Positions 18,054-38,795 are shown, counted from the first letter of the stretch. The stretch is 64,000 nt of DNA from Clostridiales bacterium (GCA_021736985.1 JAIPEW010000005.1:26413-90412), one strand, 5' to 3'. Translations and numbers: made by a program. Notes: generated from the letters alone by a model not told the origin.

Positions 18054-20282
18054 TTGCATATTAGTAATAAAGATTATCTTTTAAAACTAATAAAAATTAA
18101 TCAAAATATGGGTTATAAAGTGTTTATTTTGTATTTCGATATTATAAAATTTCGTGAAATAGAACAGGTTTGTGGAAGTAGAGCAGCTGAAAAAATAATT
18201 AACTTAGTCAGGGAAAAGCTTGAAAATAAGATACCATTTGAAGAAAATGTAAATATTTTAAGAGTTAGCAATATATGGGGCGATGATTTCATTGTCGTGG
18301 GTGCTTGTAGTAGTAATTGTGATATAAGAAAGCTGCAAGAAATTGCACTAACCTCGCGGGTTAAAATATTAGACATGATAAACTCGGATGTCAGAGAAAT
18401 AAGTGGGCAGGAAATAGAACTGCATGTTGGGTACTCAGTTATGTCTTACAGTGATAGTTTTAATATGGGAAGTAAGTTGTATGCAGCAATCCGGGATGCC
18501 CAAAATGTGGCCAAGGGGAAGGTTGATCTTAGTGTAGCCGAGGTCTTTCCTGAATTTAAAGAAATAGTAGAGAAAGAACAATTAAATGTAGTGTATCAAC
18601 CCTTAGTATCTTTAAGTTCAGGAAGGATATTGGGTTGGGAATCGCTTGTACGTGGTCCTGATAATTCTGCTTATCGATCTCCTGCTGTGCTTTTTAAATT
18701 TGCCGAGCAAACAGATATGCTTTATGCAATAGAAAAAGTTTGTAGGAAAAAAGCTATAAAGGATTTTGGTGAGCTCGGGCCCGGGCAAAAAATTTTCGTA
18801 AATATACACCCTCGTACAATAAGCGACCCCAATTTTGTCAGCGGGGAAACTTTAAACCTGATAAAAGAATCGGAATTTCAACCAGAAAATATTGTATTTG
18901 AGATAACAGAAAGACATCATATTAAAGACTATGCGCTTTTTAATGAAACGCTATATCATTATCGAAAGCAGGGGTACCTGGTAGCTATAGATGATATGGG
19001 TGCTGGATTTTCATCACTTCAGTCTCTTGCTGAGATTAAGCCTGATTACATAAAAATTGATATGTCCCTGGTTCGTGATATTAATAATGACCGTGTAAAA
19101 AAATCGCTCATAGAAACTTTTACAGCTTTTGCCGAGAAAATTGACTGCCAGGTTATTGCTGAAGGCATTGAAACAGCGGAAGAATTAGAAACTCTGGCCA
19201 GTATAGGTGTACATTACGGGCAGGGTTTTTATCTTGCCAGGCCGTCTTTCCCTAAACCGTATATGAAAGGCAATGTAATAAATGAAATTTTAACAATAAA
19301 ATATGAACAGACCTGGGGGTATTCTTTGAAGGTAAAAGATATAGCCGAGGCTGCTTCAAAATGCGAAAAGAATATGCCGGTGAAAAAAGTCAAAGAATTA
19401 TTTGATGTTTATGAACCAATTAACGGGCTAGTAATTGTAGAAGATAATCGTCCCGCAGGTTTACTAATGTACCATAATCTTAACCAACTGCTTGGAAGCC
19501 AGTATGGTATTCCCCTGTATTTTGACCGTCCGGTAAGTGAAGTAATGGATAGAATGCCCTTGATTATTGATGAAAATACTACCGTAGAACAAATCTCACA
19601 GGTAGCCATGAACAGGGAAAGAAAAAAACTGTATGATTCAATAATAATAACCAGGGATGGAAACCTGGCAGGCGTAGTCTCTGTACAAAGACTTCTTGAT
19701 ACATTAACAAAGATGCAGCTGGAAATGGCTAGAGGAACTAATCCTTTAACAGGGTTTCCTGGCAATATAGCTATTGAACAAAAGTTTTACTATTTGAGCC
19801 GCCGGGGTTTTAATTTTGCAATTGTTTACGTAGATCTGGATAACTTTAAGGCCTATAATGATAGGTATGGTTTTGAAGATGGAGACCAGGTAATACTTTT
19901 TACAGCACGACTCCTTAAAAGTATTTTTAAGAAGTATGTTTCGCAGGGTTTTATTGGACATGTCGGGGGGGATGATTTCATATTAATGCTTGATGAAGAT
20001 AACGCTGATTATATTTGCGAAAAAATTAAGCGTTGTTTTGACCGGCTTATACCAGGTTATTACAATATAGAGGATCGTACTAATAATGCATATAAGGGGT
20101 ACAACCGTCATGGAGATGAAACATGGTACTCCATTATGTCAATATCTATGGCAATAATAGATTGCAGTAATTCTAAGTATAAAGATTTTAAAGTTGTTAG
20201 TCAAAAGGCTTTTGAATTAAAGTATTATGCAAAATCTATTGATAGAAGTGTTTATGTTAGAGACAGGCGCATATCAAGATAA
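18054..20282 (+). CDS. c-di-GMP signalling protein: degenerate GGDEF-like N-domain, EAL, CBS pair, C-terminal GGDEF-type domain (GGDDF)
   Basis: EAL domain features: QPLVSL..GWESLVRG, EITE, DDMGAGFSSL, KIDMSLV, EGIET, GQGF. C-terminal VDLDNFKAYND..GHVGGDDFILM. The N-terminal domain has WGDDFIVV. Confidence 0.8.
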   Translation: MHISNKDYLLKLIKINQNMGYKVFILYFDIIKFREIEQVCGSRAAEKIINLVREKLENKIPFEENVNILRVSNIWGDDFIVVGACSSNCDIRKLQEIALTSRVKILDMINSDVREISGQEIELHVGYSVMSYSDSFNMGSKLYAAIRDAQNVAKGKVDLSVAEVFPEFKEIVEKEQLNVVYQPLVSLSSGRILGWESLVRGPDNSAYRSPAVLFKFAEQTDMLYAIEKVCRKKAIKDFGELGPGQKIFVNIHPRTISDPNFVSGETLNLIKESEFQPENIVFEITERHHIKDYALFNETLYHYRKQGYLVAIDDMGAGFSSLQSLAEIKPDYIKIDMSLVRDINNDRVKKSLIETFTAFAEKIDCQVIAEGIETAEELETLASIGVHYGQGFYLARPSFPKPYMKGNVINEILTIKYEQTWGYSLKVKDIAEAASKCEKNMPVKKVKELFDVYEPINGLVIVEDNRPAGLLMYHNLNQLLGSQYGIPLYFDRPVSEVMDRMPLIIDENTTVEQISQVAMNRERKKLYDSIIITRDGNLAGVVSVQRLLDTLTKMQLEMARGTNPLTGFPGNIAIEQKFYYLSRRGFNFAIVYVDLDNFKAYNDRYGFEDGDQVILFTARLLKSIFKKYVSQGFIGHVGGDDFILMLDEDNADYICEKIKRCFDRLIPGYYNIEDRTNNAYKGYNRHGDETWYSIMSISMAIIDCSNSKYKDFKVVSQKAFELKYYAKSIDRSVYVRDRRISR

Positions 20283-20318
20283 GATGTTTAAAAATTTTAT
20301 CTCCCGGGGGTTAACTAA

Positions 20319-21875
20319 TTGAAAATAGGACAAAAAATATACTTTATCATATTTATAATCCTATTAATTACCTGCGTGTCTTATGGTGTTATGTATTTAC
20401 AAGTAGAAAGTTTAAAAGATAATATGAATGAGACGTTTAGTACTTCTAAAAAAAACATGGAAGTTATGAAGTTGCAATCTAATTACTGGACATCTATCGA
20501 TACTTTAAAAGATTTTTTAATCACAGCAGACGAACTAAAATATGATGCTTTCGGTGAAATTTCTTACAAGTCTATAACGCAGGAAGAAAAGTTAATTAAA
20601 CTAACTAAGAATAAGGAAGCCAGGGAACATTTAAAAAAATTGCAGTCGCTGCACATATCTTTTACTAAACTTGTTAACGAAAAAATGGTTCCACTGGTGA
20701 GAACGGGCGAAAGTGTAAAAGCCCTTAATTTGTATAGTAAGGAAATAAAACCCAAGGCCTTGCAATCTATGGAAGAATTAAAAACATATTTAGATCTGCA
20801 CAAGAAGGAAATGGAAAAAATTAATGATGTATCAGCCAAGAAGGCTAACCTGGTCAAAAACTTAACTATTATTATAGGGATAATTATTATTTTACTCGGG
20901 ATTCTCATAAGTGTGTCAGCATCAAGAGCTATTATCAGGCCGTTAAAGAGGTTATCAACAGAAGTTAAATTAGTAGCAGGAGGTGATTTAACCAAGAAAA
21001 TTAATTTGAAATCAAAAGATGAGCTAGGGGATCTCGCTGCGGCTTTTAATGAAATGATTGACAATTTCAAACAAATACTTGGAAGCATCAAGGATTATTC
21101 TTTGAATCTTTCAACCCAAAGTGAGGAAATGTTTTCTGCTACAGGACAGGTTAGTTCTAATATGAGTAAAATTACCAGTAATGCAAATGATGTAACTACA
21201 GCGGTACAACAAACATCTCAAAATGCCCAGGATGCAGCTGACAAATCGCAGGAGATGTACAGCAGTGCTGAATATGGTGGACAGGCAGTTGATGAAACAG
21301 TACAAAAGATAAGAGATATAGATACTGCTTCACATGATGTAGCTGACAAGCTTCATGAAATGGAAGATAAGCTGACTAAAGTAAATGAAATAACGGATAC
21401 AATTACAGGTATAGCTGAGCAAACAAATTTACTAGCTTTAAATGCAGCAGTAGAAGCAGCAAGAGCGGGAGAACATGGAAAAAGTTTTGCTGTCGTAGCA
21501 GATGAAGTACGCAGTTTAGCCGAGCAATCGGCAGAAGCAGTAAAAGGAGTAGAATCTATAATAACAGAAATACGGCAAGGCATGTTTGCCTTAAATAACA
21601 GTATGAAAGCAAGTACAGAAATAGTTAAGCAGGGTGTATCTACTGCAGAAGATGCTGGCAAAACAATTAACGATATTGTTTGCTTGATTAAGGAGAATGT
21701 TTCCTTAATATATGAAATATCACAAATGGCTCAGAAAAGCAGTTCTTCAATAGAAAATCTAGCGTCATCTTCAGAACACATTAATTCAACTATGCAGCAA
21801 GTTACTACTTTTTCAAAGGAACTTGCCCGGATGTCAGAGGAGTTAAGCAGGTTAACCACGCGCTTCAAGTTGTAG
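20319..21875 (+). CDS. methyl-accepting chemotaxis protein
   Basis: Two TM helices, a HAMP domain ([13 protein letters not shown]) and the conserved MCP hairpin [35 protein letters not shown]. Confidence 0.9.
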
Positions 21876-22004: not shown

Positions 22005-22895
22005 ATGTTCAGACCCTTGTCTAAGTTAGCATTAGTATTTGCTGTTGTGTTTTTGCTGGCAGGTTTAGTAGCCGGCTGCGGCGGTAACTCCGATTCCGGT
22101 CAAGAGCAAAGTGCTGATCAGAATGATGGTAAAGAAGAGTTAAGCGGTACATTACAGGTTAACGGTTCTACTACTGTAACCCCTGTTGCTCAAGCCTGGG
22201 CAGAAAAGTTTCATCAGAAGCATTCTGGCGTAGAAGTAGTTGTTAGTGGTACAGGTTCTGGTAATGGTATAGCAGCTCTTATCAACGGTACTACAGATAT
22301 TGCTATGGCATCCCGCAAAATGAAAGAAAAAGAAGAAGCTAAGTTTGATGGCACACCTAAGTGCCACGTAGTCGGTCGCGACGGAGTTGCTATTGTTGTA
22401 CATCCTGGTAATTCTGTAGAGTCTTTAACTATGGAAGAAGCAAAAGCTGTATTTACTGGTGAAGTTACTAACTGGAAGGAAGTTGGCGGAGCAGATCAAG
22501 AAATCACTGTTTACACCAGGGATACAAGCTCCGGTACTTACGGATTTGTTAAAGAAAAAGTATTAGAAGATGAAAATTTTGCTAAAGCTGCACGTAAAAC
22601 TGCATCCAACGCTTCCATGGCAAAAACTATAGCACAAGAAGAATCCTCCATTGGCTATTGCGGTCTTGCATTTGTTGATGACAGCCTCAAAGCTGTTAGT
22701 ATCAGCGCAGATGGTGCCGATCCTGTTAAGCCCAGCTTTGAAACTGCAGCGTCCGGAGACTACCCCGTTGTGCGTGACTTAAACATGTATACTATCGGTG
22801 AAGCTGAAGGTTTAGCAAAAGCATTCTTTGATTACGGATTCAGTGAAGAAGGTCAGGCAATAGTTAAAGAAATTGGTTACCTGCCTGTTAAGTAA
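22005..22895 (+). CDS. pstS: phosphate ABC transporter substrate-binding lipoprotein PstS
   Basis: Lipobox LAGLVAGCGG, with GSTTV and SGTGSG motifs. Confidence 0.85.
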   Translation: MFRPLSKLALVFAVVFLLAGLVAGCGGNSDSGQEQSADQNDGKEELSGTLQVNGSTTVTPVAQAWAEKFHQKHSGVEVVVSGTGSGNGIAALINGTTDIAMASRKMKEKEEAKFDGTPKCHVVGRDGVAIVVHPGNSVESLTMEEAKAVFTGEVTNWKEVGGADQEITVYTRDTSSGTYGFVKEKVLEDENFAKAARKTASNASMAKTIAQEESSIGYCGLAFVDDSLKAVSISADGADPVKPSFETAASGDYPVVRDLNMYTIGEAEGLAKAFFDYGFSEEGQAIVKEIGYLPVK

Positions 22896-23357: not shown

Positions 23358-23555
23358 ATGTCTTTAGCTAAAAAGAAGTCAAATACAAGTAATAAAAATT
23401 CTAAGCCTCGGAAAGTTAATGCTAATAATAAGCAATCTTGCAGCTTATCTAATCAGTTTGAAAATCCTATTATTCATGTGGATATAAAACAGCAAAAAGT
23501 ATTAGTTAATAGATTATGTGAAGTATGGACTCATGAACGTATGGATATAATTTAA
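23358..23555 (+). CDS. small basic hypothetical protein (65 aa)
   Basis: AGAGGTG SD 6 nt upstream of the ATG, its own terminator at 23619-23645, and a Lys/Asn-rich N-terminus. No motif recognised. Confidence 0.5.
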   Translation: MSLAKKKSNTSNKNSKPRKVNANNKQSCSLSNQFENPIIHVDIKQQKVLVNRLCEVWTHERMDII

Positions 23556-23713: not shown

Positions 23714-24442
23714 TTATGCAGATTTGGTAATCCAATCACGATAGTCGTATAGAAAATCTGTTATTTTATTAGTGTAATAATTTTTAATCTCTATTTGTAT
23801 ATTATCCAGATATCCATTTAGGTATTTTAGTATATGAGTCTTGTGATACTTATTTAAGTTGTTGAAATAAAAGTTTTTACACAGCTTTTTCGATATTTCA
23901 GTTGTATCTAAAAGAAAATCAAAATAAAACGGCAAGCAGATATCCAAAACTACATCAATTGATTTGATACTTAAGTAGTTTAAAAAGCGATTTTTATTTT
24001 CAGCTTTATAAATAATGCTTATTTCATCATGTGATGGAAATACATGTACTAGCTGTGCGCTTCCTTGTAAGTTTAAAATTTCTTTTATCTGATTATAGTT
24101 TAAAAAGCTTATATTTTTGCTTATTGAGGAAGTTATTTTGTAATGCAATTCATTTAATTTTTTTGAAGACAACAGTTCTTTTATTACTTCATAATTATTT
24201 ATATTTTTTTTATTAAATATTTTTTCTAATACATAATTTAATTCTTTTTTTTGAATTTTAAAAAAGTTATCTACTTCGTTGCTAATAATGTTATGGCAAT
24301 TTTCTACTGTTCTATGTGTAGCTTCATCCAGCAAAAATTGGCTAAGACTATTACTAGTTAATATAGAAAGAAATAAATTGTATTTAATATTAGTGTTTAG
24401 CATATTAGTTAGTGTGTCGGGCAAAAAATTTCCTCCTAACAT
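23714..24442 (-). CDS. hypothetical protein (242 aa, N/K/I/Y-rich)
   Basis: A long ORF in extremely AT-rich DNA with its own terminator. No motif recognised. Confidence 0.5.
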   Translation of the reverse strand: MLGGNFLPDTLTNMLNTNIKYNLFLSILTSNSLSQFLLDEATHRTVENCHNIISNEVDNFFKIQKKELNYVLEKIFNKKNINNYEVIKELLSSKKLNELHYKITSSISKNISFLNYNQIKEILNLQGSAQLVHVFPSHDEISIIYKAENKNRFLNYLSIKSIDVVLDICLPFYFDFLLDTTEISKKLCKNFYFNNLNKYHKTHILKYLNGYLDNIQIEIKNYYTNKITDFLYDYRDWITKSA

Positions 24443-24599: not shown

Positions 24600-25226
24600 A
24601 TGATAAGAAGCCGATACAGGTATAATAATGTAGATAATCAAGCTTTGGAGAATGTACAAAAAGATATGTCTCGTGATATTGATGAATATAGTAAGATTCG
24701 TAAAGAAAGAAAAGGATGGCTTAAACAAAGGTCAGAAAAGCGACAGTATGTAAAGGATAGAAATGAACGATATAAACAAACAGAAAATTTACGTAATGAT
24801 GTGAAGCGAGAGCTGCGTGCTGTAGGTAATATAGAAAAACGAATAGGCAGGATTCGTTCCCCAGAAGTACAGGAAGTAGTTTATGATATTTTAAATCAGG
24901 CCAGGGAACGTGGGATGTCAGTAGATGAAGTTTTGCAAGCACTTCCTGACGGGGGAATAAAAGGACGTGTATCACCTGCGTCAAGAAGCAGTTTGTATTG
25001 GATTTTGGGGTCTTTATTATTATCTGCCCTGATATTTCCGTCAGCAAATCAAAATATGCGCAATTTTGCCGGGAAAGTTGCAGATGGAGCTTCTGATCTA
25101 TCTGATAAGCTGCAAGCTTTTGTAGAAGAAACCAGGGAAGGCCTGGAGGATATAATTGCAGAAGCTCATTTTAACAGGCTTAAAAAATCAATGGACAGTG
25201 GGGATGAAGGGGAACCACAGGCATAA
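24600..25226 (+). CDS. hypothetical protein: basic coiled-coil N-half, one TM helix, amphipathic acidic tail; paralogue of 30207-30569
   Basis: The C-half LYWILGSLLLSALIFP..LQAFVEETREGLEDIIAEAHF parallels GYLAAGTLIGAGIPFI..KLFEETREELQAIKAEAAE in the gene on the other side of the ATPase. Confidence 0.6.
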   Translation: MIRSRYRYNNVDNQALENVQKDMSRDIDEYSKIRKERKGWLKQRSEKRQYVKDRNERYKQTENLRNDVKRELRAVGNIEKRIGRIRSPEVQEVVYDILNQARERGMSVDEVLQALPDGGIKGRVSPASRSSLYWILGSLLLSALIFPSANQNMRNFAGKVADGASDLSDKLQAFVEETREGLEDIIAEAHFNRLKKSMDSGDEGEPQA

Positions 25227-25249: not shown

Positions 25250-25480
25250 ATGGCAGATATGGAAAGTATAAATAACAAGTTAGATCAAGCTTCACAACTG
25301 TTAAATGAAGCAGTGGATTTAAGCACAGAATTAAGAAAAGAAGGCCCCGGAAACAGTAAAGAAGTTTCTGCTGCATGGGAAAATTTTTTAAATAATTTTT
25401 TTTCATATATAAAAACAAAAAGTAAGGAAAGCGGCCAGAATTTAATGGCCGGTATATCCTGGAGAAAAATAAAACCATAA
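25250..25480 (+). CDS. hypothetical small protein (76 aa)
   Basis: AGGAGG 8 nt upstream of the ATG and a terminator immediately after. No motif recognised. Confidence 0.55.
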   Translation: MADMESINNKLDQASQLLNEAVDLSTELRKEGPGNSKEVSAAWENFLNNFFSYIKTKSKESGQNLMAGISWRKIKP

Positions 25481-25511
25481 AAAACAGCCTTTTATAAAAG
25501 GCTATTTTTTA
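25480..25511. terminator. bidirectional terminator shared by the 76-aa gene and the ATPase
   Basis: aaaaacagccttttataaaaggctatttttt. Confidence 0.75.
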
Positions 25512-28500
25512 TTTGTTTAGTATATCAAGTCCCTGGCTCATTATAGAACTGACAAAAACAACGCCCCATTGTGAGGGATCAAGTGAGCATGTCCCAAAAA
25601 TTCTTTGCCCGGCAGGTAAATGAATTGCTGAAAAGAGCAAACCTGCAGAAGATGCTACTGCACTTCCTACATATAAGTTTGATGATGTTTTGTTATCCTT
25701 ATTTTTGCGGCAATCAAGTACATGTAAAAGCTGACTTAGGGTAATTGAACTCAGCGTCATGCTGCGTGCAGTGGAAAGATTGTACCGGTTTAATCCCCAC
25801 ATGTATGCTCCGATTCCTGTAATTCCAATAGTAAGACCGCGGCTTATTATCTGGTTTCTTGTCTTTTTGTCTATAAAAGCTTCATCTTTATCCCTTGGTG
25901 GCTGTTTTATCAGGTCAGGAGGGAATTTGTCTATAGACAATGCTAAAGCAGGTAATCCATCTCCTAACATATTCAGCCACAGCAGTTGAATAGGAAGCAG
26001 TGGAAGCGGTAGGCCTCCTGCTACGGCAGTAAACATCAGGATAATTTCACCAACATTAGTAGCAAGAAGGTAGCGTATAGATTTCTTAATATTTTCATAA
26101 ATTCCACGTCCTTGTTCTACGGCAGTTACAGCTGTACCAAAATAATCATCTGTAATAATTATTTGTGCAGCTTGTTTTGTAACATCTGTACCGCTTTTAC
26201 CCATGGCAATTCCTATGTCTGCTTCTTTAACTGCTGGAGCATCATTTATTCCGTCGCCTATCATGCCAACAATATGCCCCTGTTGTTTAAAAGTATTTAT
26301 AATTAATACTTTTTGATTCGGATAAAGTCTTGCAAATACTCTTACTTTGTGAATAACATTTATTAAATCATTTTCATCCATTTCATCTATTTCTTTGCCT
26401 GTTAGCACTTCATTCGAACTATTTACCAGGCCTAATTCGCTTCCAATTGCAAATGCGGTTTGTTTATGATCTCCGGTAATCATGGCTACTCCTATTCCTG
26501 CCTGTTTACACTTGTTTAAGGCATGAGTAACTTCGGGCCTTGGAGGATCGGTCATACCTATCAGGCCTAGAAAGACTTGTTCTGTTTCTTCATTCTTTTC
26601 CACGTTATTTTCAAAGGCTTCCGGAAGTATTTTATATGCTACTCCGAGTACGCGCATGCCGCGTGTAGTCATGTAGTTGTTTGCTTCAACGATGGACTGG
26701 TAGTATTCATTGTCCAGTAAATTTTTATTGTTTTCAGCTCGATAGTGAGTACAGTTTTCTAATATAACTTCAGGAGCCCCTTTTGTAAAAGCTATATACT
26801 GGTTTTTAGGCCCCCTGCATATCTGCGTCATTTTGCATTTCTCAGAATCAAAAGGAATCTCTCTAACAGGCATGTATTCTTCATTCAAGTTATTTAAATT
26901 AATCCCTGCACGACCGGCTGCAGTAAGTATTGCACCTTCTGTTGGATCTCCTTTTACTTCCCATTCGTTATCGTTTTTAACAATTTTAGACGTACAGCAT
27001 TGTGCTGCAGCACAAAGGGTAAAGTATATATTATCCTGGTTGTGTATATCTTGACCGTTTGCAGGTTTAATAAAGCCATTTTCAGGGTTATATCCATCTC
27101 CTTCAATACTCCACCATTCATTTTGTCCACAGTAAACAAGTTTTATAGTCTGCTGATTTTGAGTCAGGGTACCCGTTTTATCAGTACAGATCATTGTAGC
27201 ACATCCCAGCGTCTCTACTGCCGGCAGTTTTCGTACAATTGTATTTGCTGAAGCCATTTTGTGTACGCCGGAAGCAAGGGCAAGAGTTACAATAGCCGGC
27301 AGTCCCTCGGGGATTGCAGCGACCGCTAGGCTTACCCCTGTTATAAGCATTTGCAGCAGTGATCCTCCGCGCATTAGTCCTGCAATAACAACAATGCCGC
27401 TAACAACGGTAGAACCCTTTAATATGGTTTTCCCAAGGTCTGCTAATCTTTTTTGCAGTGGGGTCGTTTCATTATCATTATTATTTAACATTTGTGCTAT
27501 ATGTCCGAGTTCTGTGTCCATACCCGTGCCAACTACAATTCCTTTTCCATGTCCCTTGGTAATTATGGTTCCCATAAAGGTAAGGTTATGGCAGTCCAAT
27601 AAATACATGCAGTTGTTTTCTGTAGAAATTTTCTTGGGTACGGGATAAGATTCCCCTGTTAAGGCAGATTCTTCTACTTCCAGTGCGTTTGATTCTATTA
27701 ACCTGGTGTCAGCAGGTACAATATTACCCTGTTCGATTATTATTATATCACCGGGTACTAATTCTACCGCGGGAATAGATTGTTCTCTGCCATCACGGAT
27801 TACAGCAGCAGTAGATGTTGTCATTTTCTTTAATGCAGATAAGGATCCTTCTGCCTTGTGTTCTTGTACAGCACTTAAGACGGCATTAATAATTACAATT
27901 GATATAATAGCCAGAGCATCACCTTTCTCGCCTAACAGCAGACACACAACGCTGGAGCCGACAAGTACATATATAAGGAAGTCTTTTAGCTGTGCTAATA
28001 CTCTACTAAAAAAACTTGGAGGGGGGGGTTCAGCTAACATGTTTTTGCCGTATAAAGTCAGGCGTGAATTCACTTCTTGTAGATCTAGTCCTGTTGAACC
28101 ACTGCTGTTTAATATATCTATTACTTTTTCCCTGGACATCATGGCCCATGGTTTCGTGTAAATACTTTCATCATTAGTATTATCAGAGGCAGCTGCATAT
28201 TGTTTTACGGCCAGGTTGTCGTAATACTTATGTGTATTATTGCTCAATTTCTTTAATAATTTTAAAGAATGTACTGTGATTAATATACTTGTAACATTAT
28301 TAAATAATCCAGCCCCTAAGGGGGAGATAAGGCTTGAGGCAGCCAGCGCCAGACCAAAGGAATTAAAACCGCCTGAAAGTGCAAAACTCTGGCGGGTTGT
28401 TTCCCCCACGTGAAAAGAGACTTTAAAGGCTGTTGGTAGATTTTTAATACCATTATCTACAATAATATCTGTTTTAGAATTGAGTTTAGATAATGTTTTT

Positions 28501-30140
28501 TCAGTTTTTAGCAGGATGTTCACATCAGTTATATTGGACAAATTTGTTATATCATCAAGGTTATTTGCAATTAGACCTACATAATTGTTGTTTTTATGTA
28601 ATAATGACATTTCATCCAGCATTTCTTCGTTTGATTTTACTGTATGCAAACCTAGTTCTTTTGCAATTATGCTAGTACTTTCATTATTATCTTTGTTCAT
28701 AACGTAGATAGATTTAATTCCCCGGGTTCTGATATTGTATATTGTTTCTTTTGCTTGATTAGATACAGAAGATTTAATACCAATTAAACCTATAAGTTCA
28801 CCTTCCTGATAGATATAGTAAGGACACTGGTAATGATGCTTTAATCTTTCTGCCTTGTAAAAGTTAAAATCGCATAAATCTATTTTAGAAGATATATACC
28901 TGTAGTCTCCTATCAATACTTCTTTGGAATATATTTCACCGCATATGCCGCTGCTGGTAATATCTTTAACAGTGACATGTTCCAGGTTTTGCACCTGTAT
29001 ACTGGAGGAAAATGCTTCATTAAGTGCATGTCCTGCTTTTTTAAAGAGTGAAGCAGCAATAGTTAAAACATCTTCTTCAGTATATCCTTGCAGAGGTATT
29101 ATTTTACCGATCTCGAGACCTGGGTCAAACATTTCTTGCTCTGTAAAAATTAATGTATCCACGTGCTCCAACACTTCCAGGGACTTTCTGTTATGTACTA
29201 AAATACCGTGTTTTGCTGCAAGGGCCATGCCTGAAGATATGGATGAGGAACGATAGAGTTGAAGTGGTCCTGGAGATGCAGCAATAAGCATTGCTAAACT
29301 TTTTTCAAAATTACGTGCTGCTAAACCAGCAAGACCGGCAAGTCCAAAATATACTGGCGTGATCTTTTGTGCATAATTTTCTGCTTCTTTCTCAAGTGGG
29401 GAAGCTGCAATTCTTCTATTTTTAGAATTAAATGTACTTATAGGTTTAGAACTAAATTTTACATTTTCAATTGTGTTGTCAGCATATTCTTCTGCAATAT
29501 CGCGCGTCTGTTTTACTAGTATAGATTGAAGTAAAGATCCCAGGTTAGAAAGCCAGATCACCAGCAGACCGGAAATATTCTCCCGCAGCAGTATAGTAAT
29601 CAAACTTGTTATACTAATAATTAGGTCATGATTAATTTGCTTTTTTCTGGTTAGAGCAGTAATCCCGCTGCGAATTATAGGATAGCCTGAAATTAATGTA
29701 GTTGCATTGGCTATGTAGGATAAGCTTGTAGACCGCGACAAAGATGAAGGTCCTGCGATCAAACGCTTTACAGTAAAACCAGCAAGTATAGTGCCGCCCA
29801 GAGTTACATTAAATAATTCTCGCCTTATTGGCAAATCTCCATATTCTTTCTCTACATGTTCTTTTTCGTTTTTAGAAACTGCTGTATCATTAGTAGATAG
29901 GCATAGATAATTTATTTCATTGATAATCAGATCATAGCTAATTAGATCCTTATTATAATGAATAAGCATACGACCTGAATTTATACTTCCTTTAACATCA
30001 GTTATACCATTCAAGCTAGATAGTTTATTTATTAAATGTGATAATAAGACTATATTTTTATTTAGACCTGGTATTTTAATACGTATTCTTTCAGGCAAAT
30101 TATGAACTACTTCTGGTGATGTGTTGTGTATTGCTTTCAT
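25509..30140 (-). CDS. tandem P-type ATPase (1,543 aa): degenerate P1B-like N-module fused to an intact P2A (Ca2+/cation-type) pump
   Basis: N-module (aa 1-~660): an HMA-like start VHNLPERIRIKIPGL without CxxC, AASPGP in place of the CPC helix, VDTLIFTEQEMF in place of DKTGT, and LIANNLDDITNL in place of GDGxND. C-module: TGES, ICTDKTGTLTQN, KGAPE, DPPR, MITGDH, GDGINDAPAVK and IPEGLP. Confidence 0.85.
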   Translation of the reverse strand: MKAIHNTSPEVVHNLPERIRIKIPGLNKNIVLLSHLINKLSSLNGITDVKGSINSGRMLIHYNKDLISYDLIINEINYLCLSTNDTAVSKNEKEHVEKEYGDLPIRRELFNVTLGGTILAGFTVKRLIAGPSSLSRSTSLSYIANATTLISGYPIIRSGITALTRKKQINHDLIISITSLITILLRENISGLLVIWLSNLGSLLQSILVKQTRDIAEEYADNTIENVKFSSKPISTFNSKNRRIAASPLEKEAENYAQKITPVYFGLAGLAGLAARNFEKSLAMLIAASPGPLQLYRSSSISSGMALAAKHGILVHNRKSLEVLEHVDTLIFTEQEMFDPGLEIGKIIPLQGYTEEDVLTIAASLFKKAGHALNEAFSSSIQVQNLEHVTVKDITSSGICGEIYSKEVLIGDYRYISSKIDLCDFNFYKAERLKHHYQCPYYIYQEGELIGLIGIKSSVSNQAKETIYNIRTRGIKSIYVMNKDNNESTSIIAKELGLHTVKSNEEMLDEMSLLHKNNNYVGLIANNLDDITNLSNITDVNILLKTEKTLSKLNSKTDIIVDNGIKNLPTAFKVSFHVGETTRQSFALSGGFNSFGLALAASSLISPLGAGLFNNVTSILITVHSLKLLKKLSNNTHKYYDNLAVKQYAAASDNTNDESIYTKPWAMMSREKVIDILNSSGSTGLDLQEVNSRLTLYGKNMLAEPPPPSFFSRVLAQLKDFLIYVLVGSSVVCLLLGEKGDALAIISIVIINAVLSAVQEHKAEGSLSALKKMTTSTAAVIRDGREQSIPAVELVPGDIIIIEQGNIVPADTRLIESNALEVEESALTGESYPVPKKISTENNCMYLLDCHNLTFMGTIITKGHGKGIVVGTGMDTELGHIAQMLNNNDNETTPLQKRLADLGKTILKGSTVVSGIVVIAGLMRGGSLLQMLITGVSLAVAAIPEGLPAIVTLALASGVHKMASANTIVRKLPAVETLGCATMICTDKTGTLTQNQQTIKLVYCGQNEWWSIEGDGYNPENGFIKPANGQDIHNQDNIYFTLCAAAQCCTSKIVKNDNEWEVKGDPTEGAILTAAGRAGINLNNLNEEYMPVREIPFDSEKCKMTQICRGPKNQYIAFTKGAPEVILENCTHYRAENNKNLLDNEYYQSIVEANNYMTTRGMRVLGVAYKILPEAFENNVEKNEETEQVFLGLIGMTDPPRPEVTHALNKCKQAGIGVAMITGDHKQTAFAIGSELGLVNSSNEVLTGKEIDEMDENDLINVIHKVRVFARLYPNQKVLIINTFKQQGHIVGMIGDGINDAPAVKEADIGIAMGKSGTDVTKQAAQIIITDDYFGTAVTAVEQGRGIYENIKKSIRYLLATNVGEIILMFTAVAGGLPLPLLPIQLLWLNMLGDGLPALALSIDKFPPDLIKQPPRDKDEAFIDKKTRNQIISRGLTIGITGIGAYMWGLNRYNLSTARSMTLSSITLSQLLHVLDCRKNKDNKTSSNLYVGSAVASSAGLLFSAIHLPAGQRIFGTCSLDPSQWGVVFVSSIMSQGLDILNK

Positions 30141-30166: not shown

Positions 30167-30213
30167 AAAAAAAACTTATAACTTAAGCTGTTTAATGCAG
30201 CTTAAGTTATGAG
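30167..30213 (-). terminator. strong intrinsic terminator between the small membrane-protein gene and the ATPase start
   Basis: Minus strand: ctcataacttaagctg-cattaaa-cagcttaagttataag followed by U8. It is a 16-bp stem with one G-U pair. The upstream TAA stop (30207-30209) lies in the 5' arm. The ATPase ATG is 27 nt after the U-run. Confidence 0.75.
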
Positions 30214-30569
30214 TTTTTTTCTTCAGCAGCTTCTGCCTTGATTGCTTGCAATTCTTCCCTGGTTTCTTCAAACAGTTTAGCCAGCTCTTTTTTTGTTTGT
30301 TCTAATTCATCCTCAACATTTGTTCCTGCGTAATTTCTTTTATCAAATTCAAATGTTTCCGGTCTATTTTCCTGTTTGGACCTTATCTCTTGTACTAAAT
30401 TGTTCCAACCTTCGGACATCTGTTTTCCAGTAGATCTGACCTTTTCGTTAACAGTTAGAGTACCTTCTGCTGTTAATAAAGCAAGTCCCCGAACCCTTCT
30501 TTTGATAAATGGGATTCCAGCACCAATTAAAGTGCCTGCTGCCAGATATCCCAGTGGATATGGATTCAT
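30207..30569 (-). CDS. small membrane protein (120 aa; glycine-zipper TM helix plus amphipathic/acidic tail, YtxH-like architecture)
   Basis: The internal ATG at 30569 (MNPYPLGYLAAGTLIGAGIPFI) has AGAGGTG 6 nt upstream; the track start is 30614. It is a paralogue of the C-half of 24600-25226. Confidence 0.65.
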   Translation of the reverse strand: MNPYPLGYLAAGTLIGAGIPFIKRRVRGLALLTAEGTLTVNEKVRSTGKQMSEGWNNLVQEIRSKQENRPETFEFDKRNYAGTNVEDELEQTKKELAKLFEETREELQAIKAEAAEEKNS

Positions 30570-31213: not shown

Positions 31214-31747
31214 TTAAAGCATATTTTGCAGTTGTTTACGAGATATCCATACTTCTGTAAGTTCTCTATGTATTCTAGTGCGCGCAAAGGGTAAGGCATA
31301 AGTTCTTGCCAGTAGATATTCCCATGATGCTATAAAAGAGTTAACGGGATTTCGGGGAAGTTTTCTAACATGAAATCCCAATCTTTTTGCTCCTGCACTT
31401 GCTACAGTAATACTATAAATACCAGTAACTGGTGTTAATTCTGTATTTTCTTCAATCTCTTTTGCCAGTAGATACAGTTCATTTTTCAGTACGTGAAGCA
31501 TGCTCCATTCAGTGGATTTTTTATGTTCTGAAATATGTTTTAATTTTAAATTAGCTAAATGTATTTCTCCCACTTTGCTGCCAGGCATAATTTCCGTTCC
31601 ATCCGGCAGAGTAAAAGGCTTACCCCGGTATTTGTGATAGCCAACAAGGATTATTCCGCAGGCATCGGAATGTACGGGATGGGTGCGTTTGATAAAAGAA
31701 AAAAATTTTTCCCACGGAAGTAATATAAGTGCTGCCCATCTATTCAA
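31214..31747 (-). CDS. conserved hypothetical protein, possibly YkoP-like, translationally coupled to the deacetylase
   Basis: 4-bp ATGA-type overlap with the upstream gene. The family assignment is from memory of B. subtilis ykoN-ykoP context only. Confidence 0.4.
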   Translation of the reverse strand: MNRWAALILLPWEKFFSFIKRTHPVHSDACGIILVGYHKYRGKPFTLPDGTEIMPGSKVGEIHLANLKLKHISEHKKSTEWSMLHVLKNELYLLAKEIEENTELTPVTGIYSITVASAGAKRLGFHVRKLPRNPVNSFIASWEYLLARTYALPFARTRIHRELTEVWISRKQLQNML

Positions 31748-32451
31748 TATTTTTCCTCCTCAAATAACCCGTCTAGTGTAACTAATTCCCACCCGTTTAT
31801 TTTACAAAAATCTAATATTATAGGTAGAGCTTGAAGCATAGTTTGTGTAGAGCCCCGGGCATAGTTATGATCGTGTAATAGTACTATAATTCCAGGTTTT
31901 AAATTTTTACATATTCTTTTTACGATGTATTGGGAAGTTATATTGTGTATCCAATCCTTGCCGGCAATAGACCATAGAACTGTCTTTTGACCGAAACGAC
32001 CGGGCCAAAAAACGGTTCCCATATTAAAACATCCCCAGGGCGGCCTGTACCACCTGGGTGTGTCTCCCGTAATAGCTTTTAATGTTTTCTTGCATTTTTT
32101 CAAGTCTAATGCTACACCCCAGGGTGTAACTAACCAGGGATGACGGTGTTTCCAAGTATGTATGCCAATAGTGTGACCGGCGTTATAAGCTTGCTGCACT
32201 AAATCTGGGTACTTTTGGGCTGATTTTCCTACCACAAAAAAAGTTGCTTTTGCCTTGTAGTCTGTCAGAATGTTTAAAAGGTGTGGGGTAAAGTAAGGAT
32301 CGGGACCGTCGTCAAAAGTTAAAGCTACAGCAGGTTTATCGGGCCCGCGGCGTATAATAGAAGGAGACTGCTTGTGTGCAAAAAAACTAGCTCCAGCAGT
32401 ATATATCATGTATGCAAATGTTAAGTTTAAGAAGTTAGACAATATTATCAC
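31744..32451 (-). CDS. polysaccharide deacetylase (NodB homology domain)
   Basis: LTFDDGPDP, HTWKH and RPPWG motifs. Confidence 0.85.
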   Translation of the reverse strand: MIILSNFLNLTFAYMIYTAGASFFAHKQSPSIIRRGPDKPAVALTFDDGPDPYFTPHLLNILTDYKAKATFFVVGKSAQKYPDLVQQAYNAGHTIGIHTWKHRHPWLVTPWGVALDLKKCKKTLKAITGDTPRWYRPPWGCFNMGTVFWPGRFGQKTVLWSIAGKDWIHNITSQYIVKRICKNLKPGIIVLLHDHNYARGSTQTMLQALPIILDFCKINGWELVTLDGLFEEEKY

Positions 32452-32484
32452 CTATCATAGCTGACAACTAATATCTGAAAAATA

Positions 32485-33672
32485 TTAAGTTGTCTGGGCT
32501 ATATGGTATTCTTCTTCATCAGATTTTTTTTTAGCATCGGCCATTTCTAATACTAGATTAACTGTGTCATTTACAGCGTTAGGTTTAGAATGCAATAGGG
32601 CCGCATCACTCATTTTTTTTAATGATGCAGGAGTTTTATATAAGTATTGGACAGTATTAACCAGGTCTTTTGTATTTTTAAAAGATTTTCCTGCACCAAT
32701 ATTGATTAAGAAGTTCGTATTTCCCTCTTCTTGTCCTGGAATAGGACGGTAAACTAATAGAGGTAAACCCTTGGATAGTGCTTCGTAAACAGTAATACCT
32801 CCAGCTTTGGAAATTAAAAGGTTGGAAACTTGCATTAAGTCTGCAATTTTTTCGGTAAAGCCTAATACATGCATCTTATTTCTAAACCGGTACTTAAGGT
32901 TTTGCATGCGTTTTAAAAGCATTCGATTGTGTCCGCAAACAATTATTATTTGTATATCTTCCGGCAAATTTCCAAGGAGCTGGCAAATCTTGGATTCTTT
33001 ACCCAGCATACCGTAAGCGCCGCCCATCAAGAGTACAGTAAATTTGTTAGATAAACCAAAATTTTGTCTTATTTGCTCGCAACTGCAGTTTTTACTAAAG
33101 CTTGGCCTGAGGGGGATGCCTAGTGGGTGAATACAAGATGTAGGAATATTCCTATCAATCAACTTATTAATTGAATACTTATCAGGTATGATATAAATGT
33201 CAGTATGGGGATGAATCCACTGCGAGTGGATTATAACATCTGTAATAATAGTTATTACTTTAGGTACGTCCTTACCTCTTTCGCTTAAAGCAGATAATAC
33301 CCCGGCAGGGGTAGGAAATGTACAAATAATAATACAAGGTTTAATGTCTTGTATAAGTTTTGCAAGACGTTCATGTCCCAGGTTGTCTAACCAGTGCTGC
33401 ACCGGGGAATCAGGTTTTATTGAACCAGTTAGTTTAAAAAATACCCGGTAAGCGTTAGGGAAATAACGAACTATTTTTATAAAACTTTTTTTAGTAACGT
33501 GATTAACGCGCGGTGCCAGAAAGTTAAAAAAGTCTTTTATTTCTACGCTTAAATCAGTTCTGTATGCATTAATGATGTCTTTAACAGCGTGGGCAACAAG
33601 GTTATGCCCGGCTCCGTAATTAGCGGATAATATAAGAATATCATAATGCGATTGAGTCCTCAATAGAAACAC
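32485..33672 (-). CDS. MGDG-synthase-family glycosyltransferase (UgtP/YkoN-like diacylglycerol glycosyltransferase, GT28)
   Basis: N-terminal ILSANYGAGHNLVAHAV and a C-terminal GT-B motif SKAGGITVYEALSKGLPLLVYRPIPGQEEGN. Confidence 0.8.
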   Translation of the reverse strand: MFLLRTQSHYDILILSANYGAGHNLVAHAVKDIINAYRTDLSVEIKDFFNFLAPRVNHVTKKSFIKIVRYFPNAYRVFFKLTGSIKPDSPVQHWLDNLGHERLAKLIQDIKPCIIICTFPTPAGVLSALSERGKDVPKVITIITDVIIHSQWIHPHTDIYIIPDKYSINKLIDRNIPTSCIHPLGIPLRPSFSKNCSCEQIRQNFGLSNKFTVLLMGGAYGMLGKESKICQLLGNLPEDIQIIIVCGHNRMLLKRMQNLKYRFRNKMHVLGFTEKIADLMQVSNLLISKAGGITVYEALSKGLPLLVYRPIPGQEEGNTNFLINIGAGKSFKNTKDLVNTVQYLYKTPASLKKMSDAALLHSKPNAVNDTVNLVLEMADAKKKSDEEEYHIAQTT

Positions 33673-34561: not shown

Positions 34562-35503
34562 TTGTTATCAGGAATTGGAAAATTATACAAAATGTTTGTG
34601 GTTTTGTTAATGCTGGTTATTATATTATTGTCAGGATGTGGTCAAACAGAGATAAGTACGAGTAATTCTGAATTTCCAATGACTTTTATAGATGACTTGG
34701 ATAGAAAAGTAACGATTAATAAAGTTCCTCAGCGAATAGTATCTTTAGCTCCTGCTAATACAGAAAATCTTTTTTCTTTAGGACTGGGTGATAAAATTGT
34801 TGGAGTTACCAGGTTTTGTAATTATCCACCTGAAGCGAAAGAAAAGCCTGTAATCGGTGGGTTTTCTAAGCCTAATGCTGAGCTTGTAGTTGCTGCAAAC
34901 CCTGACCTGGTAGTGGCTACTAATAGACATAAGGAATTTATTAATCAACTAGAATCTAGTGGAATTAAGGTAATTTCAATTGAAGGTTATGAATTAACTA
35001 AAATTTTAGATAATATTAAACTGATTGGTAAAATTACTGGAAAGTCAAAAAAGGCAGAAGAGTTAGTATCTGATATGCAGAAGCGTATTGATAGGGTTGT
35101 TGTTAAGGTAAAAAATCTTTCTCAAGAAGAAAAACCTTCTGTATATTTTGAGATATGGCCTGATCCTCTTACCACGGGTGGGGCAAAAAGCCTTTTAAAC
35201 AATTTAATTGAAACGGCAGGAGGAAAAAATATCGTTGGGGACGTGGAAAAAGATTGGGTGACTCTTAATCCTGAAGTGTTACTGGCAGAAAATCCTAAAG
35301 TTGTAATCATATCTCATCACGGGGCGTCTAAAAAAACATTGTCCCAGGTGAAGGCTCGAGAAGGTTGGAAGAGAATAGAAGCAATTAAAAACAATCGCGT
35401 ATATTATATTGAGGACAAGGATATTGTCCATCTTGCAGGACCCCGGATAGTGGATGGCTTGGAAGTTGTAGCAAAATGTATTCACCCTAAACTTTTTGAG
35501 TAA
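34562..35503 (+). CDS. ABC transporter substrate-binding lipoprotein, BtuF/cobalamin-siderophore (Peripla_BP_2) family
   Basis: Lipobox LLSGCGQ. RIVSLAPANTENLFSLGLGDKIVGVTRFCNYPPEA is the classic BtuF-like N-lobe. Confidence 0.8.
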   Translation: MLSGIGKLYKMFVVLLMLVIILLSGCGQTEISTSNSEFPMTFIDDLDRKVTINKVPQRIVSLAPANTENLFSLGLGDKIVGVTRFCNYPPEAKEKPVIGGFSKPNAELVVAANPDLVVATNRHKEFINQLESSGIKVISIEGYELTKILDNIKLIGKITGKSKKAEELVSDMQKRIDRVVVKVKNLSQEEKPSVYFEIWPDPLTTGGAKSLLNNLIETAGGKNIVGDVEKDWVTLNPEVLLAENPKVVIISHHGASKKTLSQVKAREGWKRIEAIKNNRVYYIEDKDIVHLAGPRIVDGLEVVAKCIHPKLFE

Positions 35504-35521
35504 CAATAGGAGGCACCTTTT

Positions 35522-36565: not shown

Positions 36566-36607
36566 GTTAATATATGTTTAATGCAGAGAATAATGGGGGT
36601 AAACAAT

Positions 36608-37885: not shown

Positions 37886-37909
37886 AAGATCACAGTGCAA
37901 TTTGGTATA

Positions 37910-38593: not shown

Positions 38594-38725
38594 AGTTTCA
38601 CCCCATTTGCTATCTAATTAATAGTTTTCCCGAATATTAACTTGTTAAAACTAGCAGTAAAATAAACAGAAGGAAATAAGAAGGAATGATTCATTTTTTT
38701 TGTTGTACTAAAATGCAGCCTGTAG

Positions 38726-38794: not shown

Positions 38795-38795
38795 A

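Follow-up and report, generated by a model that had tools for sequence, protein, structure and literature searches.

A predicted tandem P-type ATPase that joins a catalytically degenerate P1B-like module to a P2A-type pump, encoded in a conserved gene cluster

P-type ATPases are among the best-understood transporters, and a gene that appears to encode two of them in one chain, one stripped of its catalytic motifs, raises the question of what a pump body can be for once it no longer pumps. Such a gene lies on the minus strand of a 64,000-nucleotide stretch of DNA from a Clostridiales bacterium (GCA_021736985.1 JAIPEW010000005.1:26413-90412; the window, in what follows), whose host is annotated as a Clostridiales metagenome-assembled genome (MAG). 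A first-pass annotation of this DNA had described the gene as a catalytically dead P1B-like module (N-module) fused in frame to a complete P2A-type pump (C-module). The analysis presented here indicates that two P-type ATPase bodies are truly fused in this gene and that the fusion is old and conserved. Its parts are of kinds already known (P1B, P2A, CoBaHMA, DUF5132); what seems to be new is their tandem, the pseudo-P1B module and the accessory cluster around them. The architecture is real and widespread, and what is said below of its function is read from sequence.

The tandem ATPase is a single uninterrupted open reading frame (ORF) of 1,543 amino acids in the ORF listing of the window (Table 1), with an ATG start and a GGAGG 8 nt 5' of it. 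An identical protein is recorded at NCBI under MCF8010214.1 and MCF8021831.1, on two contigs, and is also present in GCA_021736925.1 and in the separate Logan assembly SRR12088346. The tandem architecture was found in more than 30 cluster representatives, cultured isolates included (Desulfofundulus thermobenzoicus DSM 14055 and Desulfotomaculum arcticum; also locus tag Dtox_1725). The inter-module linker is in frame in all relatives, and a stop codon between the modules, which would have made them two ordinary neighbouring genes, was looked for in all assemblies and relatives and is present in none. When the DNA before the M-M pair at the linker end was read directly for a Shine-Dalgarno sequence or internal ribosome-binding site that could serve separate P2A expression, none was evident. 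At the E-values given below, chance is not an issue as the source of the family matches of either module, and a frameshift or misassembly is excluded as the source of the fusion as far as sequence data can exclude it. The fusion is topologically sound because the P1B body has an even number of helices and both its termini are cytoplasmic; a flexible linker of ~30 residues connects the two bodies, as judged from the structural model and from conservation. The ORF list and the hidden Markov model (HMM), PDB-sequence and fold comparisons that follow bear out the earlier description of one unbroken minus-strand ORF with two P-type ATPase bodies, and all its motifs were found where it had placed them, the nucleotide coordinates of TGES and DKTGT converting exactly.

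In the HMM comparisons, the N-half proved to be P1B-derived and the full P2-type Pfam set was found in the C-half only. The NCBIfam P1B model TIGR01525 aligns with the N-half at model positions 160-560 of 560 (E 4e-35), from within the actuator region through M3-M4 and the phosphorylation (P) and nucleotide-binding (N) domains to M6, at a score of 121.7 bits that is far under the cut-off of 346. In a phmmer comparison with PDB sequences, transmembrane helices (TM) 4-6 of the N-half align with sCoaT (7qbz, E 1.4e-19), CopA and ZntA, and in the alignment AASPGP is matched with the SPC helix, T333 with the phospho-Asp, VMNKDN with MISGD and ANNLDD with GDGVND. An AlphaFold2 (AF2) model of aa 1-660, built from an 8-sequence alignment (mean predicted local distance difference test (pLDDT) score 69), has eight long helices and confidently folded P and N domains, and its best Foldseek matches are ATP7B, CopA, ZntA and sCoaT (E 4e-20 to 9e-17). 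The model thus shows the P1B body plan as a whole, in fold as in topology (MA, MB and M1-M6, with the P and N domains). The estimate of about eight extra TM helices made in the first-pass annotation agrees with the P1B homology and with this medium-confidence model, but a Kyte-Doolittle scan picks up part of the helices only, with two N-module regions (~aa 177-209 and 595-613) passing a strict hydropathy threshold, and gives no independent confirmation of eight.

Within this body the catalytic core is degenerate. Between M2 and M3, the usual place of the actuator (A) domain, there are 38 residues versus ~120 in live relatives; this stretch has no TGE, and aa 221-253 are disordered in the AF2 model (pLDDT <50). 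The xPx helix of TM4 reads SPG, in which the Pro is invariant and the second ligand is lost. T333 (29142-29144) stands in the place of the phospho-Asp, GHAL in that of HP, VMNKDN in that of TGD and ANNLDD in that of GDGxND, and no DK[TS]GT, shifted or not, was found across aa 1-660. The motifs are at aa 287 (AASPGP), 327 (VDTLIFTEQEMF), 480 (VMNKDN) and 523 (LIANNLDD). Other motifs are conserved: SGYP, N-x-D and R-E-x-x-P-G within MA-M2 (aa 102-221), and an N-N pair in M6 that reads FNN in the window protein and YNN in most relatives. With the actuator, phospho-Asp, TGD and GDGxND lost, the N-half therefore cannot, as far as its motifs tell, run the Post-Albers cycle or take up phosphate at the canonical site. 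In TM4 its closest live relatives have motifs of CPA or APS type, and the alignments indicate that it descends from an uncharacterised branch of CoBaHMA-headed ('R-rich') P1B-ATPases. The picture of a dead P1B-like module with AASPGP where CPC or SPC is expected, a short loop without TGE and a degenerate phosphorylation site and hinge is therefore upheld by HMM, PDB-sequence and fold comparisons; the N-half is clearly P-type-derived, and the two findings that would have spoken otherwise, an unrelated fold or a displaced but intact DKTGT, were looked for and neither was found.

The module opens with a segment that had been described as HMA-like, of beta-alpha-beta type and without CxxC. This holds, and the segment can now be named: it belongs to the known family CoBaHMA and equals the R-rich motif of ferrosome ATPases. 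Pfam HMA_2 (PF19991), which is identical with CoBaHMA (bioRxiv 10.1101/2024.07.07.602159), matches aa 10-99 at 35.9-38.8 bits against a cut-off of 30. CoBaHMA is a domain of the HMA superfamily with an extra beta0 strand, a conserved His, a basic patch and no CxxC (PMC8890360). In the AF2 model the head is folded as beta0-beta1-alpha-beta-beta-alpha (pLDDT ~80-87), with strands at aa 10-15 and 18-22 and no Cys between beta1 and alpha1; the additional beta0 with its His and the basic beta1/beta2 residues are all there. The N-terminal VHNLPERIRIKIPGL of the tandem ATPase is an 'R-rich motif' that all relatives carry and that reads PERIRIKIPGL here; the motif was described on FezB, FezC, FezH and CtpC by Grant et al. 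(bioRxiv 10.1101/2020.01.10.902569). CoBaHMA/R-rich heads occur in ferrosome FezB and FezC (bioRxiv 10.1101/2020.01.10.902569) and in calcyanin (PMC8890360), and the describers of CoBaHMA (Gaschignard et al. 2024), as quoted in bioRxiv 10.1101/2024.07.07.602159, propose binding of an anionic partner or lipid and a regulatory role.

The C-half, at class level, is by all comparisons made here a complete P2A pump of the LMCA1/PMR1 kind. Cation_ATPase_N, E1-E2_ATPase, Cation_ATPase, Hydrolase and Cation_ATPase_C are the Pfam families confined to it, and, as had been claimed, it keeps every catalytic signature: TGES (aa 828), PEGL (944), DKTGT (987), KGAPE (1120), DPPR (1198), MITGD (1220) and GDGINDAP (GDGIND at 1295). 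Its best solved relatives are Listeria LMCA1 (6zhf, E 1.9e-163) and then human SPCA1. With LMCA1, the Bacillus subtilis YloB class and SPCA1 it has the catalytic motifs, domain order and site-II ligands in common; unlike them, it is preceded by a 664-residue pseudo-pump and stands outside the housekeeping clade. The Ca2+-site ligands E/N/E/N/D are kept (E in M4, N/E in M5, N/D in M6; the ion-site columns read IPEGLP, TNVGE and LNMLGDGLP), with Gly at the equivalent of SERCA T799 and Gln at the M8 position. Scores lie below the equivalog cut-offs of both TIGR01522 (PMR1-type; 655-662 bits vs 798) and TIGR01116 (SERCA-type; 580-586 vs 703), and the earlier label 'P2A-type' therefore holds at class level only, without an assignment to the PMR1 or SERCA equivalog. 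M6 of the dead-tandem clade reads N-x-L-G-D-G-L-P, that of housekeeping pumps N-L-V-T-D-G-L-P, and in a rough neighbour-joining tree without support values the housekeeping PMR1-type pumps of related Firmicutes form a tight clade that includes none of the CoBaHMA-linked P2A modules. The C-module would accordingly be a specialised paralogue set apart from the housekeeping pumps. Judged from its nearest solved relatives, the ion that it carries is probably Ca2+ and possibly Mn2+ instead, and only this half of the protein is expected to hydrolyse ATP and transport a divalent cation.

How the dead half came about can be followed in its relatives. A word-indexed protein search found one close N-module relative only; an exhaustive HMMER search with the N-half gave the set used here, with 69 cluster representatives below 1e-30. 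Among the best 150 N-half representatives, 24 are tandems of 1,350-1,700 aa; seven of these have both halves live, 10 lack the A-domain and the catalytic Asp motif, and several are reduced further. The catalytic columns, read from an alignment of the N-modules of 150 relatives, place the window protein as one stage of a degeneration series. Both motif sets and a full A-domain are present in the tandems P0036, P0037, P0051, P0063, P0064, P0094 and P0124. The tandem P0067 has no A-domain and keeps DKTGT and GDGxND, while the A-domain and the catalytic Asp motif are both missing from the window protein and from P0030, P0032, P0035, P0071, P0082, P0087, P0099, P0116 and P0128. In P0061, P0093, P0096 and P0138 the N-domain is deleted too, as it is in Dtox_1725. 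Every stage has its standalone counterparts: free-standing bodies are dead in P0001, P0031, P0033, P0034, P0039 and P0070 and A-less with motifs in P0040, P0050 and P0052, and there are also minis of 380-500 aa. Loss of the catalytic motifs, DKTGT among them, is conserved across the dead clade; the live/live tandems and the further-reduced forms were not part of the earlier description. True P1B-6 FezB-like sequences (DYSCA/HNxxT) appear among the more distant N-module matches only.

Two variants in this series are recorded here as side observations. A-less bodies that keep DKTGT and GDGxND (P0040, P0050, P0052 and P0067; L019:10001-11989 and L013:2458-7008) could in principle be phosphorylated, though not dephosphorylated by the normal route; TGD is also kept in the standalone P0040, P0050 and P0052, and P0067 reads SSD there. 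The dead tandems P0189, P0191, P0192, P0193, P0194 and P0196 still have an Asp in the phospho-site column (e.g. TVIFDGTGS), with the K-T-G-T, TGD and GDGxND residues around it lost.

Seen from the other half, the closest relatives of the C-module (49-56% identity), which include proteins of Desulfotomaculum arcticum, D. varum and Dtox_1725, nearly all carry PF19991. Nine of the 12 closest are full-length tandems of ~1,500 aa in which DKTGT and GDGxND each occur once; the remainder comprises reduced (Dtox_1725), shorter (1,110 aa) or incomplete proteins. Ordinary PMR1-type pumps of ~915 aa follow at <=46% identity.

The dead module also exists outside the fusion. In Peptococcaceae bacterium BRH_c4a (locus L010, of which metagenome locus L018 is a duplicate) it is a separate 652-aa gene, P0033, with 29% identity to the window N-half (E 2e-80) and no DKTGT. 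About 1.5 kb downstream, with two accessory genes in between, the locus encodes P2A pumps of 1,000 and 979 aa (L010:9315-12317 (+), L010:12301-15240 (+)) that each have their own CoBaHMA head directly on Cation_ATPase_N. L019 brings together a P1B that is A-less but keeps its motifs, an HMA_2 protein of 558 aa and a CoBaHMA-P2A pump of 1,040 aa, and D. arcticum has an additional CoBaHMA-P2A pump of 1,030 aa beside its tandem. Pumps of this kind, ~980-1,040 aa long and without an intervening P1B body, lie at L014:5927-9019 (-), at L019:14703-17825 (+) and at the two L010 positions just given, and share clusters with dead or A-less P1B-like proteins. The first-pass annotation had asked whether relatives encode the module as a separate gene next to a P2A pump; BRH_c4a and L019 do. 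By Rosetta-stone logic, the clustering of a separate dead module with P2A pumps therefore suggests that the dead body and the P2A pump work together. Across these sequences the CoBaHMA head is the common denominator of every pump in the system.

Conservation by region was measured as mean pairwise identity within 15 dead fused relatives. It is 0.56 for the C-module, 0.39-0.48 for the membrane helices of the dead half (highest, 0.48, in MA-M2, aa 102-221), 0.34 for the CoBaHMA head, 0.25-0.32 for the P/N domains and 0.15-0.19 for the linkers. H13, L15, P16, R18, R20, R57, G152-Y153-P154, A287, P290 and G596 are invariant (100%) in the 15 proteins, in which the phospho-site column is variable (T/N/D/S/H/E) and TGD and GDGxND are unrecognisable. 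Invariant head and helix residues together with degenerate catalytic columns therefore indicate that the dead half is under selection, not for catalysis, and that its main targets are the head motif and the membrane helices.

Beyond what the first-pass annotation had reported, the gene lies in a conserved accessory-gene cluster. Accessory families were defined by pairwise BLAST and then iterated HMMs over the loci of eleven relatives; among the loci from genome contigs, 3 came from a closer 3-sequence N-module alignment, and a metagenome collection gave 2 loci, one the duplicate of L010. A DUF5132-like family adjoins the ATPase in 11/11 loci, usually in two copies. The window copies are W_135, upstream of the ATPase, with a glycine-zipper TM (LAAGTLIGAGIP) and a cytosolic helix with a Glu/Ala-rich tail, and the longer W_208, which falls into one HMM family with W_135 and has homologues in L007, L010, L011, L012, L014 and L015. 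Of 17 family members, 8 are recognised by the DUF5132 profile at E <= 0.05 (best E 1.2e-5); neither W_135 nor W_208 is recognised by it alone. For the all-helical W_242, searches of Pfam, NCBIfam and PDB were without match and the AF2 model is of low confidence (pLDDT 57, 4-sequence alignment). A homologue of the fourth protein, W_76, was sought in the eleventh locus, L019, and none was found; Pfam, NCBIfam and PDB profile searches named neither W_76 nor W_65, the 65-aa ORF described below.

The accessory set is found with a P1B-like body that is live and fused (L011), dead and fused (the window, L004, L006, L007, L014, L015), A-less (L013, L019) or dead and free-standing (L012, L010). In L012 the standalone dead module is flanked by the accessory families, with no P2A pump within the 16.6-kb locus, and the accessory set therefore goes with the CoBaHMA/P1B-like body. 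From these comparisons, the gene belongs to a conserved module that includes two DUF5132-like proteins, a helical protein of ~240 aa and a protein of ~76 aa.

Table 1. Features of the tandem ATPase and its neighbourhood, in window coordinates.
Feature	Position	Strand	Description
Whole tandem ATPase	25509..30140	-	CoBaHMA, dead P1B-like body, linker, complete P2A pump; from ORF, Pfam and NCBIfam
CoBaHMA (Pfam HMA_2) domain, aa 10-83	29892..30113	-	beta0 strand with H13; basic R18, R20, K22, R57; without CxxC
N-module helices MA, MB, M1, M2, aa 102-221	29478..29837	-	AF2 helices 102-129, 138-166, 171-186, 189-221
A-domain remnant loop, aa 222-247	29400..29477	-	no TGE; identity 0.15
N-module M3-M4, aa 248-310	29211..29399	-	AASPGP in place of CPC/SPC helix; aligned to sCoaT VLVAASPCAL
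Degenerate but folded P/N domains, aa 311-563	28452..29210	-	AF2 pLDDT mostly 75-90; PDB alignments
N-module M5-M6, aa 564-633	28242..28451	-	AF2 helices 564-601, 607-653; conserved Q584, N593, G596, L597
Flexible inter-module linker, aa 634-664	28149..28241	-	pLDDT <50; identity 0.18; M-M, ancestral P2A gene start, at linker end
Complete P2A-type pump, aa 665-1543	25509..28148	-	Pfam/NCBIfam; D987 of DKTGT at 27180-27182
W_135, DUF5132-like, single-pass	30207..30569	-	120 aa from ATG 30569, which is preceded by a ribosome-binding site; mechanical ORF to 30614
W_208, long DUF5132-like form	24600..25226	+	208 aa; N-terminal helical domain, glycine-zipper TM, amphipathic helix
W_242, all-helical	23714..24442	-	236-242 aa; homologues in 11/11 loci
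W_76, soluble, convergent with ATPase	25250..25480	+	76 aa; homologues in 8/10 loci scanned first, E 1e-33 to 1e-36 (family HMM)
Bidirectional terminator-like hairpin	25477..25512	.	16-pair stem, T-runs on both strands; consensus pattern match only
Terminator-like hairpin between W_135 and ATPase start	30178..30210	-	13-pair stem, then T-run; consensus pattern match only

Several observations concern the accessory proteins themselves. W_135 has a weak, near full-length match to GvpT/GvpP (gas-vesicle accessory; E 9e-4, far under cut-off), and YtxH is weakly matched by five members of the DUF5132-like family. The N-terminal domain of the long DUF5132-like forms shows weak ferritin-like matches: EncFtn-like (2 members), Coat_F (2) and DUF2383 (1). 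Long-form homologues of W_208 lie at L011:6968-7615, L015:15259-16134 and L007:8821-9681. W_65 (window 23358-23555 (+)) adjoins W_242, and its homologue L012:9856-10077 (-), with 53% identity over 32 aa, adjoins the standalone dead module; it may be a sixth cluster member.

The cluster was set beside systems in which comparable proteins are known. FezB (P1B-6, ferrosome), FezH and Mycobacterium tuberculosis CtpC share with the N-module the hhLPGRxRxxxPGL motif, a CoBaHMA head without CxxC and the P1B body plan, and like the tandem ATPase are encoded with small glycine-motif membrane proteins. Unlike them, the N-module has no A-domain, DKTGT, TGD or GDGxND and is fused to a P2A pump; its TM4 has SPGP and its TM6 FNN (YNN in relatives), where FezB has D[YF]SCA and HNxxT. 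The window cluster presents one ferrosome (fez) trait, an R-rich motif on the ATPase together with a small GxxxG protein (GTLIGAG in W_135). The three accessory-family HMMs had no match in the fez-like locus L016 (P1B-6 ATPase, FeoA, MamC-like gene), and the genes reported for the 11 loci include no FeoA, DUF2202 or DUF4405. An assignment to the fez clusters was rejected, since the TM motifs differ and the accessory HMMs miss a true P1B-6 locus.

In mycobacteria, PacL binds the N-terminal domain of CtpC and is required for CtpC stability and clustering (PMC13460109). The PacL-Ctp effluxosome and the window both have a small single-pass protein beside a P-type ATPase, with a Gly motif in the TM and a Glu/Ala-rich cytosolic helix, and the docking site on the ATPase N-terminal domain offers a concrete mechanism for what the CoBaHMA head might do. 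The window system differs in that a P2A pump is tethered via a dead P1B body and in having no evident metal-binding tail. DUF1490 and DUF6110 were absent from the Pfam matches of 17 accessory proteins at E <= 0.05; without a signal from either, the accessory proteins were dropped as PacL homologues.

The neighbours of Microcystis ccyA (calcyanin) include CoBaHMA membrane proteins, two DUF5132 proteins and a Ca2+/H+ exchanger, and two of these are co-expressed with ccyA (bioRxiv 10.1101/2024.07.07.602159). Genes for CoBaHMA, DUF5132 and a Ca2+ transporter thus stand together there as in the window, though the ccyA host is a cyanobacterium that forms intracellular amorphous calcium carbonate (iACC) and the transporter is a CAX antiporter, not a P-type ATPase.

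The nearest conceptual precedent, and the sole described case found, is the P4-ATPase-like domain on guanylate cyclase of alveolates (Plasmodium GC-alpha/beta, Toxoplasma ATPaseP-GC), an ATPase body appended to another membrane enzyme. It differs in being eukaryotic, of P4 class and partnered with a cyclase, and is evolutionarily unrelated. Some of these alveolate P4-ATPase-like copies are degenerate. Bacterial tandem P-type ATPases, the conserved pseudo-P1B module and the accessory cluster are undescribed in the searchable literature, in agreement with the earlier statement that there is no characterised precedent; the CoBaHMA family paper (Gaschignard 2024) lay outside that search and may list CoBaHMA-P-type ATPase architectures.

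With moderate confidence, we propose that the dead half is a built-in adaptor or regulatory subunit of the P2A pump in a CoBaHMA/DUF5132 membrane system. The C-half alone would hydrolyse ATP and move a divalent cation, with Ca2+ the most likely and Mn2+ a possible cargo. By way of the basic patch on its CoBaHMA head and of its membrane body, the dead half would couple the pump to DUF5132-type proteins, to anionic lipid or to both, much as PacL scaffolds bind the N-terminal domain of CtpC, and this coupling would determine the site or the timing of transport in a specialised membrane domain or compartment. A common toolkit for the routing of Ca2+ would agree with the presence of CoBaHMA and DUF5132 proteins and a Ca2+/H+ exchanger together at ccyA. 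We infer that the system resembles the ferrosome, PacL-Ctp and cyanobacterial iACC systems yet is distinct from them. The sensor, scaffold and oligomerisation roles floated in the first-pass annotation all stay conjectural, and the data favour a scaffold or adaptor.

A number of observations weigh against this proposal. The accessory proteins match neither the PacL families nor the proteins of fez clusters, and the scaffold analogy is one of form, not homology. The C-half lies under the PMR1 and SERCA cut-offs and, unlike its housekeeping paralogues, has Gly at the Thr799 equivalent; Ca2+ is no more than its probable ion. In the dead half the P/N core is still folded, and the His of the nucleotide-binding HP motif persists in several members, which would suit a nucleotide- or ion-sensing regulator as well as a passive adaptor. 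The polar helix residues N170, D172, R186, E187, Q584 and N593 are conserved and could bind or conduct an ion.

The last two points lead to a first alternative, in which the dead half is an allosteric sensor or autoinhibitor that binds nucleotide (through the N-domain) or metal (at polar sites in the helices) and gates the P2A pump independently of any scaffold. Its confidently folded P/N core in the AF2 model, the HP-motif His kept as GHAL in the window protein and in many dead relatives, and the invariant polar residues in the helices would all be accounted for, and the A-less P0040, P0050, P0052 and P0067, which look phosphorylatable but not recyclable, would suit a switch. The nucleotide-binding motifs, however, are unconserved in the dead clade, with wide variation in the HP column; among the folded parts none is conserved less than the P/N domains, and P0061, P0093, P0138 and Dtox_1725 have lost the N-domain wholly. 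Some pumps, moreover, carry the CoBaHMA head only. We regard a sensor of this kind as unlikely.

A second alternative, which overlaps with the proposed adaptor, is that the cluster builds or serves a cation store inside the cell, bounded by lipid and filled with Ca- or Mn-phosphate or carbonate, or else the membranes of the forespore, with the tandem as loader and the dead half in a structural or membrane-shaping part. CoBaHMA/R-rich heads on FezB, FezC and calcyanin, the CoBaHMA and DUF5132 proteins beside the Ca2+/H+ exchanger at ccyA, the glycine-zipper TMs of the accessory proteins and the weak ferritin-like matches of the long DUF5132-like forms are consistent with such a compartment, as are the polyphosphate genes (ppx-ppk1-ppx-alkaline phosphatase) directly downstream of the cluster in L013 and the fact that most identifiable hosts are apparently endospore formers. 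Yet the cluster is without fez hallmarks (D[YF]SCA/HNxxT, FeoA, DUF2202) and its accessory HMMs miss the fez locus, the polyphosphate link is seen in one locus only, and nearby sporulation genes are to be expected in any Firmicute genome. This alternative, too, seems improbable when set out on its own.

Much less probable still is that the dead half is an inert relic, the P1B half of a two-pump fusion kept only as helices that aid membrane insertion or folding of the downstream pump. The live/live tandems (P0036, P0037, P0051, P0063, P0064, P0094, P0124) and the stepwise A- and N-domain deletions could be read in this way, but dead modules persist as genes of their own beside the same accessory set (L012, L010), the CoBaHMA motif is 100% conserved, as are several residues in the helices, and P2A pumps fold well without such a leader. 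An assembly or annotation artefact, in which sequencing error has merged two neighbouring genes, could appeal to the MAG origin of the window and to the M-M pair at the ancestral P2A start, but it is practically ruled out by the identical ORF under two NCBI accessions and in a separate Logan assembly, the fusion kept in more than 30 cluster representatives with isolate genomes among them, the lack of a ribosome-binding site at the internal Met and the in-frame linker of all relatives.

Going further than the adaptor proposal, and quite tentatively, the tandem and its four or five conserved neighbours may constitute an unrecognised membrane system of Desulfotomaculia/Clostridia, a third beside ferrosomes and iACC inclusions among CoBaHMA/glycine-zipper compartments for cation storage or routing, in which a heteromeric P-type ATPase complex would depend on pseudo-pumps, fused or free, as obligate subunits with a structural or gating part. 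If this is true, these pseudo-pumps would be the first bacterial P-type ATPase 'pseudoenzyme' subunit, and the live/live, A-less, dead and mini forms would record the conversion of a transporter into a scaffold. The degeneration series with its unfused counterparts is a natural experiment on what outlasts catalysis: the head and the helices, not the ATPase core. The CoBaHMA domain and the orphan DUF5132 family gain a concrete, testable partner system, and ferrosome R-rich motifs, PacL scaffolds and iACC neighbourhoods are joined in one hypothesis on the targeting of cation pumps in bacteria. D. thermobenzoicus DSM 14055, D. arcticum and the strain with locus tag Dtox_1725 offer cultured hosts for experiments. 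In databases these proteins are named 'cation-translocating' or 'HAD-IC family P-type ATPase', 'Ca2+-transporting ATPase' or 'zinc and mercury transporting ATPase', names that are generic or wrong and hide or misstate the architecture.

Riboswitches that might betray the ion (Mn2+, Mg2+ or others) were sought in the window and 8 related loci, and none was found at the cluster. A cobalamin riboswitch at window 42622-42803 (+) (120.8 bits) is upstream of nothing related to the tandem ATPase. In the D. thermobenzoicus cluster a c-di-AMP (cyclic di-AMP) riboswitch (L004:14953-15125 (+), 99 bits) lies just past the DUF5132-like gene, and its target is probably the downstream lysine-2,3-aminomutase-like gene rather than the cluster. 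One of the two terminator-like hairpins in Table 1 spans the end of W_76 and overlaps the ATPase stop codon; the other, ahead of the ATPase start, could be a terminator or attenuator.

The host is taken to be an endospore former because SpoIIR is encoded at 37910-38593 of the window. In L013 the genes directly downstream of the tandem-ATPase cluster (L013:8499-15008) are ppx, ppk1, a second ppx and alkaline phosphatase, an arrangement seen in this locus only; a PstS-like phosphate-binding protein is encoded at window 22005-22895 and PhoU at L004:1-660. A MAG titled 'Deltaproteobacteria bacterium DeMMO5_3' (L006/L009, JAGUVT010000033.1) has a tandem ATPase and RmuC-flanked synteny like that of BRH_c4a (L010), and its taxonomic label may be wrong. 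Just upstream of the window cluster, a tight co-directional set at 31214-33672 (-) encodes a YkoP-domain protein, a polysaccharide deacetylase and a glycosyltransferase similar to monogalactosyldiacylglycerol (MGDG) synthase, and the equivalent side of L013 has a GT4 glycosyltransferase and a PAP2 phosphatase. Further neighbours in the window (18054-21875 (+) and 34562-39659) are an EAL-CBS-GGDEF protein, a chemoreceptor, a FecCD-type ABC importer, SpoIIR and a ZnuA-type binding protein, and GGDEF proteins also flank the cluster in L007, L014 and L019.

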